A stretch of DNA of 64,000 bases, taken from contig CM000154.2 in the NCBI GenBank assembly GCA_000004695.1, positions 2,240,001 through 2,304,000 of the forward strand, read 5' to 3'. Shown here piece after piece: positions 16,489 to 26,561 of the stretch (its first letter is position 1; every line of letters starts with the position of its first letter). The translations under genes and the position numbers were made by a program. This DNA is from Dictyostelium discoideum. Lineage: Eukaryota. Under the pieces are notes generated by a model. It worked only from the letters and a program-made list of their open reading frames with translations, made no database searches and had not been told where the DNA came from.

Positions 16489-17683
16489 GTTATTATAATT
16501 ATTATTGCCATTATTAAATTTATCATTGCTATAACCATCACTATTATTAGTTGAGATTGTTGGGAATTGTGGTGTTTGATTACCACTATTATTGTTATAA
16601 AAAGATGGTGGGGCACTTGGGAATTGTGGTGATTGTTGTTGTTGTTGATATTGTTGTTGGATTTGTTGTTGATGTTGAATTTGAGAAAAAGTTGGTTGTT
16701 GTGGTGGTGACATAATTGGGAAAGATGGCATTTGGGGTTGTTGTTGTTGTTGTATAATTTGTGGTGGTGGTTGTAAAATTTGAGGTTGTTGTTGATGATG
16801 TATAATTTGTGGTGGTGGTTGTAAAATTTGTGGTTGTTGTTGTACAATGATTGGTTGTGGCATTATGAGTTGTGGTGGTGGTGGATAATCTGAACCACAC
16901 CAATCTACATTAAATTTCTCTGCAATTTCTGAAAGTGTTTGAAAAATTATTGATGGATCAGGTGTGGCGTATGATAATTTATGTACAATCTTTGGATTAA
17001 CATGAGTGCTGCAATGACAATTTGCCTCATTTTCTAATCCTTTTCCATATTTTGCCTTTAATTGATTTTTAATTTGTTCCAATTCTGGTATTTGAATTCT
17101 TTGTGATGAATATACTAATGTAAATATTGATTCTTTCATTTCTAATGGCATTTCACTTTATTTTAATTAAAAAAAAGAAAAAAAAAAAAAAAAAAAAAAA
17201 AAAGAATTAGTTTATTTTTTAAAAAGTTATAAAAACCAATAATTTAAAGTGGAAGAAATTCTCCAAATTAATAAAAAAAAATAAAAAAATAAAATATAAT
17301 AAATAAATAAAAACATACGTTGTTGCATTAATTAAATTAATTCTGGCATGTAATAATTCACATAAAACTTCAATGATTTGAAAACATTCAATTAAATATT
17401 CATCTCTGATGATAGTTTCAACTCTGATTCTAGCACTTTCTTCATTCTTTTTTCTTAATAATTCTGCGACATTTCTTTTTTCATCTCTTACAATATTTGC
17501 TTTTTTATTCTTTAAAATTTGAATTCTACTTACTGCAAGTTTAAGTTGAACTTTTCTAAATAAGTTTTAGAAATAAAATAAAAAATAAAAATAAAAAGTA
17601 AAAAATTAACAAAAAAAAGAATCAAATATTAATAAACACATATTCTTATTTGGTGTTTTTGTTTTTGTTTTGCTTTGTTTTTT

Positions 17684-17763: not shown

Positions 17764-18353
17764 TGTTCTTATTTATTTGTTTTGATAGATAAATTAAATC
17801 TTTTATATTTAAATAATAGACTATTAAAAACAATAATAAATAAAAAAAAAAACCCACCAAAAAAAAAAAAAAAAAACTAAATAAAAAATATTTTTATTAT
17901 GCTGCTTAAAAATTCAAACTATAAATTTTTTTAATTTTTAATTTTTTTTTTATTTTTTTTTATTTTTTAATTATTTTTTTTTATTTTTTTTTTTTTTTGG
18001 GAAAATAATATCAAAATGAATTTTTAAGTTTATAAATATTTATAAACTTTAAAAAAAAATTTAAGTTAATCATAATTTCTTTTTTTTTTTTTTTTATTTT
18101 TTTTTTTTAAAAGAATAAAAAAAGAAGAATAAAAAAAAAAATAAAATAAAAAAAAAAAAAAAAAAAAAAAAGATATTTCAAACATGAATTTCTTAAAATA
18201 GTGGGATGTTTTTTTTTTTTTCCATTTCTAAAAATAAATTAAAACAATCATTAGAATAAAAATACTTTATTGATGATTTGATTATTTCTTTTTTTTTTAG
18301 GATTTACCAATAATAATAATAAAATTGTTATTATTATTAATTATTATTATTAT

Positions 18354-19643: not shown

Positions 19644-19985
19644 ACTTTTAAAGTAAAGTTGGAATATATATATATATTATATAGTTTTTATAAAATTTAT
19701 TATTATTTATAAATTATTAAAACAGGTTTTTTTTTTTTCGGGGTGGGGAATTAAAAAAAAAATTAAGGGAATTGGAAAAAAAAAAAAAAAATTTAAAAAA
19801 ATTGGAAAAAAAAAAAAAAAAAAAAATTAAAAAGGTTTTTTGAATCCTCAAATGAAAAATCAAAAAACTGTTTTTTTTAAAAAAAAAAACAATACCCTTT
19901 TTGATATTTGCTTTTTTTTCATTTTATTTTTTATTATTTTATTTTATTTAAAATACGGGATTAAATTTTTTTATTTGTTTTAATG

Positions 19986-20031
<46 letters not shown>

Positions 20032-20227: not shown

Positions 20228-20268
<41 letters not shown>

Positions 20269-20285: not shown

Positions 20286-23272
20286 ATGAAAGGAATAAAA
20301 ATAATTTTAATTTTATTTTTAATACTTAAAATAAATTTAATAAAATCTCAAGAACCAATAAATATATTTATTAAAAATGGTGATGATCTTTGTAAAATTA
20401 ATAATTATTTAATACCATTTTCAAATTCAACCTTACCAATAATTTTAAACATTCAGAATGGAAATTATTATTCAACATGTAAAATAATAATAAATAATAT
20501 AAATAATTTAACTATAATACCCAATAATAATAAAAATAATAATAATAATAATGATAATAATGATAATAAAAATAATAATATTAATTTGATTGATATTGAA
20601 TTTGATTTTAAAGATTCAAATATTGAATTTTTAGAAATTAATTTTAAAAATCAAAATAATAGTAAAATTAATATTGAAAGTAGTAGTATAATATTAAGTG
20701 ATAGTAAATTAATATTAGGGGTATATTTTGAAAGTTTAAAAAGTTTTTTAAGAATTAATAATTCAATTATTAGTGATTCAGTATTTGTAATTTATAATTC
20801 AACAGTTTTAATTGATAATTCAACGATTAAATTCAATGAAATTTTTCAATATATAATAACGGCGACTAATACTACTACATCTTATTCATTATTACTTTAC
20901 AGTATATTTTCACAAAGTGAAACAAATATATCAATTAAAAATGGAATAATTGAATCAAATGGTTATTATAATAGTAATTTACAATTATTTAGTGATGGTA
21001 TTGAAGATTTAACAAATTCAATAACAATTGAAAATATAATAATTAAAGGATTTTCAAATAGTAAATTATTAATTGAAGCAAATGGAAATCAATTAATTAT
21101 TACAAATATTACCATAACAAATTGTAATTCAATAGTATTCATTTCAACTCAATCAATTCAATCAATTACAATAAATGGTATATTATTAATTGGAAATAAA
21201 AATTTTATATTAATTTATATAAATAAACTTTGTAATTTAAATATAAAAAATTTATTAACTAGTTGTGATAATGGTGTAAATAAAAATTCAGCATTAATTA
21301 AAAGTAGTGAATATATTGAACTTAATAATAATAATAATAATAATAATACAACAAATTATCAAATAAATATTAGTAATTCAAAATTACATTGTTTTGGAAA
21401 TTCAATTTTTAAAAGTTCAGAAATTAAAATTGAAAATGTTTCAATTTTAACGAATCCATTATTTCAAATTGATGATAGTTTTTTCATATTAAATAATAGT
21501 GATTTAAATATGAAATCAAGTTCAATAGTTTCAATTAGTTATTTTAAAGTATTGAGTGATTATTTCTTTCAACTTGAAAATCAATCAAATTTAGTAATTG
21601 ATAATTGTACATTTACAAACAGTACATCTGGAATGATATCAGCAATCAATAAATCTAAAGTATTATTATCAAGTATAGTTATTAATAATATTCAATTAGA
21701 TAATATACCATTTTTTAATATTAATAATTATTCACAATTAGTGATATCAAATAGTAGTAGTAGTAGTAGTAATCAATACAATGGTGTGATTATTGGTTTA
21801 AATATTAAAAAATATTATGGAACCAATTCACCATTAATTCTATCAACTTCAAATTCTATAATAAATATAGAATCATTAGAATTATCAGAAATTTCATTTA
21901 ATTCAAATAATAAAAATAATAATTATAATGTAATTGCAATTATAAATTTATTTTCATCAAGTTTATATATTAAAAATTCAATAATATCTCATTGTTATTC
22001 AACAGATTCAATTTTTAATTCAAATGATGGAACTGATTTTTTAGTTGAAAATGTAAAATTCTTTCAAAATTTTATAATATCATCTCAACAAAGCACAACA
22101 AGAAAACACAACAGAATTTATTTGGTAAAAGGATGGGTAGTATATTTGAACTGCAGGTTGATAATGTGAATTTTACAAATGTAGAATTTAAAAAGAATTC
22201 ATTTAGTCCAATATTAGGAACCTATAAATCAAATAATATAATATTAAATAGTATTATATCTGAGGATAATTTGGGATCATTTTGGTTTTCAACAAATGAT
22301 AAAAACTTGATTTCAAATAATTTATCATTGATTAATAGTAGAGTCCCAATTAATTATTTCTTTGGCTCATTATTTTCAAAAAATATAACATTTTCAAATT
22401 TATCATTAAAAAATAACTATTTCTTAAATTACTTATTTGATATTTATTATGGTGATTTGGTATTGTTTGAAAATGTTACATACTTTAATAATAAAGTCAT
22501 TAGTACACAAGGTAAAGATAATTGGCCATTCTTAAATAGGTATATGTCTCCAATGGATTTAACATACTCTCAATTTAGATTCTTAAATAATAATCAATTA
22601 AAATTTAAAAATTTCAATGTAATTGATAATCATTTCTTTTCAAGCATGATTTATATTTATGAATCAAATTTTATATTTGAAATTGGTAATATTGAATTTA
22701 ATAAATTTTATAATTATTCAAGAACTTCATTTTTAATTTCACAACATTCAATAATAAATTTAAATAAAATTAATTTCATTTCAAATAATTCAACTTATAA
22801 TATTTTATTTGATAGTGATAGTGATATTAGTGGTGGTGGTAGTAGTGGTAATAATAATATAAAAGGTGAAAATGAAATATTTGGATTAATTTATACATTT
22901 AATTCAAATTTTACTATGGATTCTGGTATACTCTTATGGAATGATTTCCCATTTAGTAATGGTTCAATAATTAATCATGCTTGTTTATCATCATCAGTAC
23001 ATTCCTATACTCTTTCAATTATTAATTCACAAATTTCTAATAGTATTTCAAATTTTGGTACTTTACATTTAGAATTTTCAATGGATAAAAATAATCAAGT
23101 TTTATTAAAAAATAATACATTTTCAAATAATTTTGCAAAAACTGGTTCTGTACTATATGTAATTGGTTTTGGTAATATTGGTAATTATAATCAATCAATT
23201 TTTTATAATTCAAATAGTTTTCAAAATAATTCTTGTATTTTTGGTAATAGTATAATTTCTTCAGGTATTTAT

Positions 23273-23304
<32 letters not shown>

Positions 23305-25121
23305 CCAAATAATAAAATAAAGGTATTATTTAATAAATAATTAATTAATAAAAATTTATTTTATAATTAGGAATTCCAAAAATTTTCCCAATTGAAAAAA
23401 TTATTGTTTATGGTGGTGACCAAATTGAAATTAATTTTCCATTTATTGATTATTTTAATAATCCAATTGATTATATTCCAGGTGTAAAAAATTTATCAAT
23501 ATCAATTTTAAATCCTTCAAATTCACCAAATCGTATAGATCAAGTTTTTATTCCACCAAATGTAATATCTGGAATAGGTACAATTTTTTATACATTTAAT
23601 GTTAGTAAAGAGGTTGAATTTAAAATTTTTTTTTTAAATTTTCAAGATTTAAATCCAATTAAAGTAAATGTAATAGGTTGTTCACCTTTTACTTTTCCTG
23701 ATAAACAAAAGGGTTGTTCTTTTTGTCTAATTGGTTCAACTGTTAAAAAAAGATATTATTATGATGATGATGATCTTATTGAACCTTGCAAAATATGTCC
23801 AGATAGTTTAACTTGTGAGAATGGAGATGTTTATTCCCATGTTGGTTATTATTTAATTAATCAAGATGTATCATTGGTTTACCAATGTGCATTAGATATG
23901 TGTTTAGAAAATAATCAATGTTCAAATAAAAATAATTATGGTGATTTATGTTTTGAGTGTATTGATAATGATGGAAATCAAGTTGTTTCAAAAAATGGTA
24001 TTCAATGTTGTTCAAAATTTATAGGTTGGTTAATAATTCCAATTATTTTAATTTATTTAATATTTGGTTTAATTCTATCTTATATAAAATATACAGTATT
24101 TAATAGTTTATTATGTAAATCCATATTATTTATTCAAATTAATTCAGTGATTTTCTTTCCTTATAGTGGTATTTATTTTTTACCATTATTTAGAGGTTCA
24201 CTTGATATGATTGATGGTATTTGTTTATCAAAGAATTTAAACTATATTGGCAAAGTATACTTGTCATATTTAATAATAATTTTATTATTTATAATTGGTT
24301 CAACTGATATAACAATTAAGTTATTTATTAAAATTTATCAAATATTTTTTAAAAAATCTAAAGAGTCAACAGTATTACCAAATTTCATAGTAAAAATATT
24401 AATAAGAAAAAAACAATATGGAGAATTTAATTATAAAATGAAATCTTTGTTTTCACTATTTCAAATTTTATTAATACCATTACTTTTCAATTCAATTTCA
24501 ATGTTGGTAAAGAAAAATATTCTTTACAACACCACTCGATTAATAATGGATTTTTCAATAATCAATTCTTCAAATCGAACCTTTTTACAAATTATTTCAA
24601 TACTTTTATTAATAATAATTGGTTTTTTTATTTTATTAGTGGTTTTAATATTTAATTTAAAAACATTTTTAAAATTAGTTAAAAAATTAGGACTAAATCT
24701 AAAATTCATTGAAAAATTTAAATTACAATCAAAATTAATTCAAATTTTAAATACTGACACAAGTAATAGTATATATAGGAATCAATTTAAATGGTGGAAT
24801 GTTATTGAAATTATTAGATCAATTATATTTTCCATTCTTTCAATATCAATGATATTCTCACCAAATTATTATATGTTAATTATAGTTTCAATACAGTTTA
24901 TCTATACATTCCTTTATATATTTTTTGAACCATTGCAAAAGAAATATTATTTTAAAAATATTTTAATTAATTTTTCCCAATTAATAATTTTTACAATTTT
25001 TGGTTCCTCTTTATTTCAAACATTGATTTTACCATTTTTTAAAGGTTTAATAATTTCAATTTTATCTTTTTTGGTTTTTATTATTATAATTTTTTTTAAA
25101 AAAATAAATAAAAATAAATAA
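20286..25121 (+). CDS. Large (~1565 aa) secreted/multi-pass membrane protein: signal peptide, Asn-rich beta-helix-like repeat region, Cys-rich module, ~9 TM helices. Model: 20286..22124, 22157..23264, 23371..25121
   Basis: N-terminus MKGIKIILILFLILKINLIKSQEP is a signal peptide. About 1000 aa of N/S/I-rich degenerate repeats follow, with many NxS/T sites. The Cys-rich segment is GCSPFTFPDKQKGCSFCLIGS...EPCKICPDSLTCENGD...QCALDMCLENNQCSNKNNYGDLCFECIDNDGNQ...CCS. It is followed by 9 hydrophobic helices (IGWLIIPIILIYLIFGLILSYI ... LIISILSFLVFIIIIFF). Track ORFs 1 and 2 are joined by removing a 32-nt GT..AG segment (22125..22156), which restores the frame. Exon 2 ends G|GTATTT before a T30 run. 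Exon 3 enters at ataattag|GAATTCC in phase 1 and is open through the TTG-started track ORF 23874..25121. Confidence 0.6.
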
Positions 25122-25373
25122 AAATGAAAACATTTTGTAAATTAAATTAATTAAATTAATTTTTTTATAATACATGATGAGTACTTTATTAAAAAACCGC
25201 TGAGATGAAAATCAATTAATTTAATTATTCAAAGATTCATTCACAATTAAATATTTTTTTTTATAAATAATTTTTTCCATTTTTCTTTTAGAATTGGAGA
25301 ACGGCTTTCATTAAAAGGCTTTTACAAATTATTAACCGTAAAATTTTGGCTAAATTTAAAAAAAATCATAAAA

Positions 25374-25446
25374 GGGGATGTAGCTCAGATGGTAGAGCGC
25401 TCGCTTAGCATGCGAGAGGTAAAGGGATCGATACCCTTCTTCTCCA
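25374..25446 (+). tRNA. tRNA-Ala (anticodon AGC)
   Basis: GGGGATGTAGCTCAGATGGTAGAGCGCTCGCTTAGCATGCGAGAGGTAAAGGGATCGATACCCTTCTTCTCCA. A box is TAGCTCAGATGG, anticodon loop TTAGCAT (AGC), and the Ala identity pair G3:U70 is present. B-box-like GGGATCGATACCC. A T8 Pol III terminator follows. One U6-U67 mismatch in the acceptor stem and A54 in the T-loop are atypical. Confidence 0.8.
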
Positions 25447-25473
25447 TTTTTTTTGCCTAAAAATTTAGATTAA

Positions 25474-25485
25474 GGGTTCGACTCC
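25474..25485 (+). promoter_or_regulatory. ex-B box (extra B-box, GGGTTCGACTCC) ~28 bp downstream of the tRNA
   Basis: B-box consensus GGTTCGANTCC copy outside the tRNA body. Such external B boxes downstream of Dictyostelium tRNA genes are known and are the landmark near which TRE3 elements integrate. Confidence 0.6.
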
Positions 25486-25499
25486 TTAAAATATTGTTA

Positions 25500-26526
25500 A
25501 CATTTGAAAAAAAAAAAAACCGTACCGCGATCAAGAGGATACAAGATACACGTGAAAAAAAAAAAAAACCGTACATAAAAAACGAAAATGGACAACCACT
25601 TTCACTGGCAGAATGGTATACCACAATTCAAGACCAAAATCCAACCATCCCTAAAACGGAATTCCAATCATCTCTAAACTTAAGAGGCTACAGCTATAAT
25701 CAACTCTTCAACAACATACTGAAGATAAAAGACCCTAAAACAAGAGACACAATGTTTAGATTCCATGCCAGATGCCTTCCAATAAACTACCTTCACAACA
25801 AACAATGCCCACTCTGCAAAGAAGATATGAGCAAAGACCCATACGGTCACCTGTTCTTCTCATGCAAGAAAACAAAACAATTCATAAAAATAAATAAATA
25901 AACTCAAAAATTTCATCTATATTACCACAGGCAAAGGTAAAAACTGGCACCATACAAGAATTAGGCAAAATAACAATTTCATTAATAGAATAACTCCAAA
26001 ATTGTCACCGACAGCCAAAAAAGATCAAGAAGTGAATGCAGATTACGCCAACCACAGATTCCACAAAGAATACTTTGAATGGAACTATAAAGCAATAGAC
26101 TATGATCATTCGCATATAGAAACCTAATGGCCCTTATCCTCCACAACATTTGGATTTGGATTTGCAATCAAATATACAGTGAAGATCCTTTAACAGATGA
26201 ATCACTATCATACAGCTCCCTTCTAAAGAAATGGCACAAATTGGCCACTCTAGAATACATCAAAAAAGCAAAAGATCTGAAAAACTTATCAGCAAAAGAC
26301 CATAATAACTTCAAAGATCCTAAGATCCTTCTCACTTCAACGATCAAGCTAAGAAAAACAACAGCTAATTACTATTGTATTCCAGAATCATCTCTCCCAA
26401 ATATTATATCTTTTGATCAATTCATATGATTAAAATAACCCTTCAGCTTAAATGATAAGCATTTAAATAAATATTAAATAAAACTCGTATTAACACAGAT
26501 GGACATATATCAATCTTGTTAATCCA

Positions 26527-26561
<35 letters not shown>
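25500..26561 (+). mobile_element. 5'-truncated 3' fragment of a TRE3-type (tRNA-gene-targeted) non-LTR retrotransposon, ending in a ~32-nt poly(A) tail
   Basis: Begins ~50 bp downstream of the tRNA-Ala, right after the ex-B box. The GC-richer ORF fragment has rare host codons (CTG, CTC, ACG, GGC) and ends ...MFRFHARCLPINYLHNKQCPLCKEDMSKDPYGHLFFSCKKTKQFIKINK*. This is the H-x-C-x2-C...H...C Cys/His motif typical of the ORF2 C-terminus of non-LTR elements. About 600 bp of 3' module follows (including track ORF 26127..26429), then A32 at 26530..26561. The subfamily (TRE3-A/B/C/D) is not determinable here. Confidence 0.55.

Follow-up and report, generated by a model that had tools for sequence, protein, structure and literature searches.

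A frame break in the Dictyostelium discoideum gene DDB_G0289049 coincides with two extra bases that are probably errors in the AX4 reference sequence

Reference indels can split open reading frames (ORFs) that are then patched with spurious short predicted introns, a situation discussed by Roy and Penny (2007; PMC1950532). Introns of extreme brevity have also been validated, among them a 30-nt intron in human MST1L and a 35-nt intron in Tribolium (PMC4675715), and passages of two further reports give a 35-nt intron in Giardia (PMC1201135) and introns of roughly 25 nt in ciliates (PMC5014332). For D. discoideum the published intron lengths have a mean of 146 or 133 nt and a median of 104 nt. 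Here we analyse a frame break in a 64,000-nt stretch of D. discoideum AX4 chromosome 5 (hereafter the window) that shares features with both situations, and with programmed -1 frameshifting. As in the reference-indel cases, a long intact ORF is broken, the automated gene model spans the break with an exon-like 56-nt GT..AG 'intron', and the extra bases are absent from an independent assembly, their removal yielding one ORF; unlike those cases, the discrepancy consists of two insertions of one base each, separated by 21 nt, and a substitution, in place of a single homopolymer-length error. A 32-nt segment just downstream has the GT..AG ends and the approximate length (~30 nt) of ultra-short spliceosomal introns, but its composition is exon-like, its coding sequence is conserved, and an intact allele translates it without interruption. 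Like programmed -1 systems, the locus shows a -1 frame relation and an X_XXY_YYZ heptamer in the overlap of the two frames; unlike them, its heptamer is expected by chance and lacks a stimulatory structure, and no relative conserves the two-frame arrangement.

The only match in a word-index protein search with the window was the AX4 protein DDB_G0289049, on a contig of 5,125,352 bp. Our literature search found no mention of this gene. We propose that positions 20286-25121 form one gene, in which one ordinary AT-rich intron separates two exons, and that it encodes a 1575-residue secreted, Cys-rich, multi-pass membrane protein of the beta-helix type (Table 1). Removal of the intron gives an in-frame, stop-free join; it is spliced out in the public AX4 model, and the residues at this junction in the protein from a second D. 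discoideum assembly reflect the same splice. The stop codon of exon 2 also ends an ORF from the Logan contigs, and the homologues have similar ends. The whole coding sequence (CDS) has 18.6% GC, and its frame B part matches the Pfam family Beta_helix (PF13229) with E = 5.6e-7. The relatives of DDB_G0289049 are large dictyostelid beta-helix transmembrane proteins, for example DDB_G0272102 (Q55A59), D. purpureum DICPUDRAFT_76333 and D. firmibasis RB653_007406, with which it shares the architecture, the right-handed beta-helix domain and full-length alignment at 26-38% identity. A fold search returned pectate-lyase-like and tailspike-like beta helices, and a search for paralogues within the window found none. 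DDB_G0289049 departs from its family in a loop, where about 15 residues (IISSQQRQQENTTDL) are inserted at precisely the site of the AX4 discrepancy. The AX4 database entry (1319 aa) appears to be wrong at several places, the true product being likely the 1575-residue protein of two exons; besides the 56-nt segment, the public model contains three further unsupported introns.

Table 1. Features of the DDB_G0289049 locus and its surroundings (window coordinates).
Feature	Position	Strand	Evidence or remarks
DDB_G0289049 CDS part 1, frame A	20286..22093	+	ORF list and translation; signal peptide, N-terminal beta-helix repeats
Heptamer A_AAT_TTT, X_XXY_YYZ type, in frame	22067..22073	+	Within the overlap; judged a chance occurrence
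Extra C of the AX4 reference (AAAG[C]ACAAC)	22094	+	Pairwise alignment with the second assembly; first +1 shift
Third-frame stretch (..QQENTT..), 20 nt	22095..22114	+	Protein of the second assembly, alignment, translation
Extra A of the AX4 reference (CAG[A]ATTT)	22115	+	Alignment with the second assembly; second +1 shift
Rest of exon 1, frame B, beta-helix repeats	22116..23264	+	Translation; Pfam PF13229
Proposed 32-nt 'micro-intron', frame B coding	22125..22156	+	ggt AAA AGG ATG GGT AGT ATA TTT GAA CTG CAG
56-nt 'intron' of the public AX4 model (...LVKGWV/NSFSPILG...)	22140..22195	+	Mapping of the public model; removes coding SIFELQVDNVNFTNVEFKK
Sole credible intron of the gene	23265..23370	+	106 nt, GTATTT...TTAG, 6.6% GC, long T run
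Exon 2: Cys-rich stalk and multi-pass membrane region	23371..25121	+	Ends ...FFKKINKNK, then stop codon
Discordant patch	23376-23637	n.a.	AX4 copies the next base, 14/14
Discordant patch	19694-19983	n.a.	AX4 copies the previous base, 31/32

An earlier note on this DNA had described two overlapping ORFs in different frames and a 32-nt GT..AG string whose removal would reconcile them. As a description this is accurate. The ORFs 20286..22169 (627 aa, frame A) and 22133..23320 (395 aa, frame B) are both present, and the 40-codon overlap is real, frame B being open from 22049 and frame A closing with the stop at 22167-22169 (121 nt). The string, GTAAAAGGATGGGTAGTATATTTGAACTGCAG, lies where the note placed it and has 37.5% GC (given as ~37%), and without it ...HNRIYL joins VDNVNFTNVEF in frame. 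The frame break is thus a real property of the window; the 32-nt 'intron' is one arbitrary pick among many. Within 400 nt, 43 GT..AG segments with a length of 2 mod 3 join both frames stop-free, and 11 of these are no longer than 62 nt (17, 20, 32, 41, 41, 50, 50, 50, 56, 59 and 62 nt). Given so many alternatives, the GT (22125-22126) and AG (22155-22156) of the 32-nt segment are a match at chance level and carry no weight.

An intact, colinear allele of the gene exists; it differs from the corresponding part of the window at three sites, and in it the 32-nt segment encodes conserved, structured residues. This allele is found in the D. discoideum assembly GCA_054883475.1, the protein of which (KAM9947526.1) has no frame break, reading ...FIISSQQRQQENTTDLFGKRMGSIFELQVDNVNF... 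and, at the junction itself, ...FIISSQQRQQENTTDLFGKRMGSIFELQVDNVNFTNVEF... uninterrupted. The two loci are 99.1% identical over 10.9 kb, and throughout exon 1 (20286-23264) the pairwise alignment shows only one additional C in the window (22094), a C/T difference (22107) and one additional A in the window (22115), with zero differences before the first of these sites and identity after the last. The substitution is synonymous (AAC/AAT, Asn) in the frame read by the intact allele. The site reads AAAGCACAACAAGAAAACACAACAGAATTT in the AX4 reference, with both extra bases, and AAAGACAACAAGAAAATACAACAGATTT without them. Together the two bases add 2 nt and so shift translation out of frame A and into frame B. 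Once both are deleted, a single ORF of 1575 codons with one stop remains, equal to the other allele save for a separate patch with 14 substitutions, and its product is colinear with nine homologues in the alignment. The 20-nt stretch between the extra bases corresponds to a low-confidence loop in the structure model and to an insertion relative to the homologues. Isolated SNPs between this assembly and AX4 are almost absent at the locus, whereas wild D. discoideum strains differ by about 0.3%; in keeping with this near-absence of SNPs, the assembly probably represents the AX2-214 laboratory lineage.

The 32-nt segment lies 10 nt downstream of A22115 and is, in our reading, plain coding sequence (KRMGSIFELQ), with nothing spliced out; in the intact allele it translates as G-KRMGSIFELQ. 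Of the ten aligned family members, at least 90% retain its phenylalanine F190 (TTT, 22145-22147), and the same holds for F162 (22059-22061) and N165 (22068-22070) upstream, which are frame A codons. The change of frame is thereby bracketed to 22071-22144, an interval that contains both extra bases. In an AlphaFold2 model of the protein (pLDDT 78.6, pTM 0.82), GSIFELQVDNV... forms a predicted beta strand (residues 187-205) that begins inside the 32-nt segment, and the residues discordant between AX4 and AX2 belong to a loop (model residues 170-182) whose pLDDT stays below 50.

The extra bases most likely belong to the AX4 reference and not to the AX4 strain, and we consider errors of base calling in the Sanger reference of 2005, rather than any property of the organism, to be the probable explanation. 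Both C22094 and A22115 are absent from the second assembly, which we infer to be of the same lineage, and correcting them gives the single ORF colinear with homologues that a reference error would predict. An axeB lesion that is the same in Ax2 and AX4 suggests descent from one axenic ancestor, and mutations arise at a measured 2.9e-11 per site per generation. Of the 1,917 departures from the reference in mutation-accumulation lines derived from AX4, 1,916 were common to the lines, and were ascribed to reference errors or to differences in the ancestor. The neighbourhood of the break contains two further discordant patches (Table 1), in which the AX4 base copies an adjacent base at 51 of 52 substitutions, whereas the base of the other assembly does so at 28 of 52. 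Independent short-read contigs from Logan, four in all and covering only the patch at 23376-23637, side with the second assembly against AX4 at 14 of 14 sites. The presence of these patches suggests that the chromosome 5 reference is locally of low quality here. At 22094-22115 the copying signature is less clear than in the flanking patches, and only the extra A fits it. The earlier note had allowed for a 1-nt sequencing indel somewhere in 22049-22169; the place was close, but there are two extra bases and one substitution, not a single 1-nt indel. The patches sit about 1.3 kb and 2.1 kb from the frame break, one on each side.

Several look-ups for the two forms of the site returned nothing. 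In read-derived ORFs there was no exact record of the intact 1008-aa stop-to-stop ORF, of the 395-aa downstream ORF or of three poly-F length variants. A junction query (207 aa) and the first 602 codons of the upstream ORF (20286-22091) gave no protein matches, apparently because low-complexity candidates swamped the search, and a metagenome scan gave no match to either allele of the stretch 22080-22140. The locus illustrates how base-call errors, when bridged by the exon-like mini-introns of gene predictors, can mimic exotic splicing or recoding. Its biological significance is slight and its practical value lies in curation; the local quality of the reference is relevant to variant calling and construct design in this region.

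An alternative that deserves some weight, although we think it unlikely, is that the cluster of changes (+C, T>C and +A within 22 nt) is a real mutation of AX4 or of the AX3/AX4 lineage that inactivates DDB_G0289049. The strain would then make a truncated secreted beta-helix fragment of 627 residues, or no product at all, and the gene would be a young strain-specific pseudogene. The additional 2 nt are indeed in the window, the neighbour-copy signature of the flanking patches is not clearly common to the three changes, and laboratory strains do gain lesions, the axeB deletion-insertion of Ax2 and AX4 being one example. Against this, three changes in 22 nt with no other in an exon of ~3 kb would be unexpected at the measured mutation rate, and artefact-like patches flank the site, independent reads contradicting the reference in the one patch that they cover. 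A unitary pseudogene might be expected to carry further disabling lesions, but after the two-base correction no other stop or frameshift occurs in the 4.7-kb CDS. The exact truncated 627-aa ORF was found in no read-derived assembly record, which is weak evidence in the same direction.

All readings that invoke a micro-intron or a programmed frameshift are very unlikely. The proposal that the 32-nt segment is a real ultra-short spliceosomal intron restoring the frame in AX4 mRNA has in its favour the GT and AG ends, the length of 2 mod 3, the precedent of validated 30-40 nt introns in other eukaryotes and a clean join (...RIYL/VDNV...) that resembles the preceding repeat junction (...TDFL/VENV...). 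The V[ED]NV pattern of the internal repeats, however, fits the colinear reading as well as the one with the segment removed. Scores from a family HMM do not separate these two readings either: 14 alternative joins scored 175.8-189.8 bits, with the 32-nt join (182.2 bits) not below the colinear reading (181.9 bits) and the two effectively tied, in a profile built from homologues of 19-28% identity. The earlier note had itself remarked that the segment was short and exon-like for a Dictyostelium intron, and both remarks are borne out. It has less than half the length of the shortest credible intron in the window (range 75-163 nt), and its GC content is three to seven times that of these introns (5.6-11.9% GC), well above both the gene's CDS and its real intron; only 0.8% of 32-nt windows across the gene's own exons reach as high a value. 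The intact allele has the identical 32 nt and translates them, and splicing them out would remove the codon of the conserved F190 together with the start of a confident beta strand. With 42 other frame-restoring choices of the same kind available nearby, we give the micro-intron of the earlier note hardly any credence.

Slimmer still is the chance of a compound case, in which the +2-nt lesion is real in AX4 and the mRNA is rescued by some exon-like micro-intron of at most 62 nt, the 32-nt segment being one candidate. In shortness and in GC content, no spliceosomal intron known from Dictyostelium would come near such an intron. Two other specific segments could restore the frame, the 56-nt 'intron' of the public AX4 model and a 62-nt segment at 22053-22114. 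The former is backed by its use in that model, and the latter by its family HMM score (189.8 bits, the highest) and by a repeat length nearest to that of the homologues. Both, however, are coding and read through in the intact allele, and both are exon-like at 25-26% GC. The 56-nt segment would delete F190 and its whole strand and has the lowest family HMM score (175.8 bits), and the 62-nt segment would delete the conserved F162 and N165. The three other unsupported introns of the public model suggest that its 56-nt 'intron' is an automated patch over the frameshift. We find it scarcely credible that either segment is spliced.

Programmed -1 ribosomal frameshifting from frame A into frame B at A_AAT_TTT, the last possibility raised by the earlier note, fits the -1 relation of the two frames and the one canonical in-frame heptamer in their overlap but is very improbable, given that the AT-rich upstream ORF has 15 such heptamers in 624 codons (0.96 expected per 40 codons), that the RNA of the following 97 nt has a minimum free energy of -8.7 kcal/mol and is thus less stable than the mean of shuffled sequences (z = +1.2), 179 of 200 shuffles being at least as stable, that all homologues are single ORFs in which the two-frame arrangement is not conserved, and that the intact allele stays in frame A for 20 nt past the heptamer (FIISSQQ).

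The window, extremely AT-rich throughout (14–38% GC per kb), carries the two ORFs described in the earlier note, 20286..22169 and 22133..23320, in different frames (here frames A and B). The open part of frame B begins at 22049 and the frame A stop lies at 22167, so that the reported 40-codon overlap spans 121 nt; frame B lies −1 relative to frame A, and repair means either losing 2 mod 3 nt or gaining 1 nt. The conceptual protein across the break matches one database protein, DDB_G0289049 (AX4), at 98% identity, and since the residues distinctive of that protein (e.g. ...RIYLVKGWV and GIPKIFPIEK) are those encoded here, the window is AX4 reference sequence. The GT..AG string proposed as a micro-intron or frameshift is present as quoted (22125–22156, 32 nt, 37.5% GC), and its excision joins ...HNRIYL to VDNVNF... 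in frame. It is real but not distinctive: within 400 nt, 43 GT..AG segments would give a stop-free join of the two frames, 11 of them ≤62 nt long, and the public AX4 protein model (P0001) uses another (22140–22195, 56 nt), joining ...LVKGWV to NSFSPILG....

A cluster look-up yielded an intact allele, KAM9947526.1 (P0021), from a second D. discoideum assembly, GCA_054883475.1, which crosses the junction unbroken (...VENVKFFQNFIISSQQRQQENTTDLFGKRMGSIFELQVDNVNFTNVEFKKNSFSP...). Its locus (L001) aligns with the window at 99.1% identity over 10.9 kb, and throughout exon 1 (20286–23264) the two differ at only three positions, all inside 22 nt. Two of these are extra bases in the window, and this +2 nt is the frameshift: deleting both produces a single 1575-codon ORF, identical to the other allele save for an unrelated patch that holds 14 substitutions. 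The frame break, which the reference string truly has, is thus explained by two extra bases upstream of the 32-nt segment; a sequencing indel within 22049–22169, as the earlier note had offered among its alternatives, is essentially the reading favoured here, with two bases involved and not a single nucleotide. The 32-nt segment itself begins 10 nt beyond the second extra base, has the same sequence in both assemblies, and is translated in the intact allele as KRMGSIFELQ.

Features of the DDB_G0289049 locus (positions in the window)
Feature	Position	Strand	Basis or remark
Extra C in window	22094	+	alignment with L001
C in window, T in L001	22107	+	alignment; synonymous in restored frame
Extra A in window	22115	+	alignment with L001
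Reading frame after any frame-restoring join	to 23264	+	translation
Intron	23265–23370, 106 nt	+	GTATTT...TTAG, 6.6% GC, typical Dictyostelium intron
Coding end	25121	+	after crossing intron 23265–23370
tRNA-Ala (AGC) gene	25374–25446		250 nt downstream of DDB_G0289049 stop

We infer that the extra bases are probably errors in the AX4 reference. L001 probably derives from the AX2 laboratory strain, because isolated SNPs against AX4 are essentially absent from it, unlike wild strains, which differ by about 0.3%. The axeB deletion–insertion is identical in Ax2 and AX4, which implies descent from a common axenic ancestor, and the two are very closely related. The reference also looks locally unreliable near the frameshift, with two more discordant patches on either side of it, 2.1 kb upstream and 1.3 kb downstream. 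AX4 carries the same base as an adjoining position in 51 of 52 substitutions, compared with 28 of 52 in the other assembly, and four Logan contigs from different SRA runs side with L001 at 14 of 14 downstream-patch sites. Of 1,917 departures from the reference in AX4-derived lines, 1,916 were common to the lines and were ascribed to reference errors or ancestor differences. A genuine frameshift in the AX4 lineage would fit the lack of a clear neighbour-copy signature at the three junction differences, but three real changes inside 22 nt would be extraordinary at the measured mutation rate of 2.9e-11 per site per generation, and we regard it as unlikely. Read-derived sequence over these three differences was sought and none was found. 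The locus is a matter for curation, not a discovery.

A short intron or recoding of any kind is far less probable still. The supposed 32-nt micro-intron codes for protein. When nine homologues (19–28% identity) are aligned with it, the protein shows three positions conserved in ≥90% of sequences: F162 and N165, upstream in frame A (VKFFQN), and F190 within the segment (the Phe of GSIF, TTT at 22145–22147), which brackets the frame change to 22071–22144. As introns, the 32-nt and 56-nt segments would both delete F190, and the candidates of 41, 50 and 62 nt that begin at 22053 would delete F162 and N165, which speaks against all of these. The 32-nt segment is exon-like in GC content; of all 32-nt windows across the gene's exons, 0.8% are as GC-rich. 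The eight credible introns in the window measure 75–163 nt at 5.6–11.9% GC, and published D. discoideum introns have a mean of 146 or 133 nt and a median of 104 nt. A profile HMM from distant homologues did not discriminate between the models, scoring 182.2 bits with the 32 nt removed, 181.9 for the colinear, AX2-like reading, and 189.8 and 175.8 with the 62-nt segment and the public 56-nt segment removed, respectively; repeat periodicity is likewise compatible with the 32-nt-removed and colinear readings. What carries the argument is therefore the intact allele, together with residue conservation and composition. When the colinear protein is modelled with AlphaFold2 (pLDDT 78.6, pTM 0.82), GSIFELQVDNVNFTNVEFK falls in strand 187–205, where pLDDT is around 96 from position 191 onwards. 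The assembly-discordant residues sit in a low-confidence loop (residues 170–182) that homologues lack.

Programmed frameshifting would need the −1 direction, and the overlap does contain one heptamer of the X_XXY_YYZ type in frame (A_AAT_TTT, 22067); however, such heptamers are expected at 0.96 per 40 codons in this ORF, the 97 nt downstream fold less well than shuffled sequence does (z = +1.2), and the intact allele stays in frame A past the heptamer. That the second assembly is wrong and the reference right is implausible, as errors in GCA_054883475.1 would need to rebuild a 1575-codon ORF by accident.

The N-terminal two thirds of the protein form a right-handed beta helix (Pfam PF13229, E = 5.6e-7; nothing besides Beta_helix in a Pfam search of the whole gene, 20286–25121), and a fold search with the predicted model returned polygalacturonase, tailspike and alginate-lyase helices. 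Downstream lie a Cys-rich segment and then a multi-pass membrane region. An exhaustive HMMER search gave 20 representatives of the family, proteins of ~1500–1900 residues with a signal peptide, right-handed beta helix, Cys-rich stalk and C-terminal multi-pass membrane domain; every source looked up was a dictyostelid, including DDB_G0272102, D. purpureum DICPUDRAFT_76333 and D. firmibasis RB653_007406.

The downstream patch (23376–23637) holds 14 substitutions between AX4 and GCA_054883475.1 across 262 nt, all non-synonymous; the AX4 base equals the next base in 14 of 14, seven of the changes giving AX4 a Pro codon, and the independent short-read contigs (L002–L005) match the other assembly at each site. 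It is probably a patch of reference base-call errors. The intergenic patch upstream of the gene (19694–19983; 32 substitutions plus indels against L001) has a similarly artefact-like signature in the opposite orientation, the AX4 base equalling the previous base in 31 of 32 (e.g. CGGGGTGGGGAATT versus CGGAATGAAAAATA). We interpret the neighbour-copy pattern as read-tail base-calling artefacts in reads of opposite orientation. Within the real intron, the T run at 23278–23305 comprises 27 T then an extra C in AX4 and 22 T in L001, and homopolymer lengths differ in flanking intergenic DNA at 17674–17680, 18148–18152, 19989–19997, 20234–20239 and 26532–26536.

The public AX4 model (1319 aa) contains three more unsupported 'introns' (20703–20804, 24114–24638, 24897–25989), two of them in stretches that the AX2-like model and a Logan ORF (P0002) read as open coding sequence. 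The last jumps the true stop (25119–25121) plus the tRNA gene and ends in ORF 25990–26124; the AX2-like model, P0021 (1820 aa), also extends beyond the true C-terminus, and ORF fragments from about 25990 are swallowed by both. The Logan contigs part from the window and L001 at 25343, some 30 nt before the tRNA, a divergence that may mark an assembly-graph repeat boundary, possibly the end of a tRNA-targeted retroelement.
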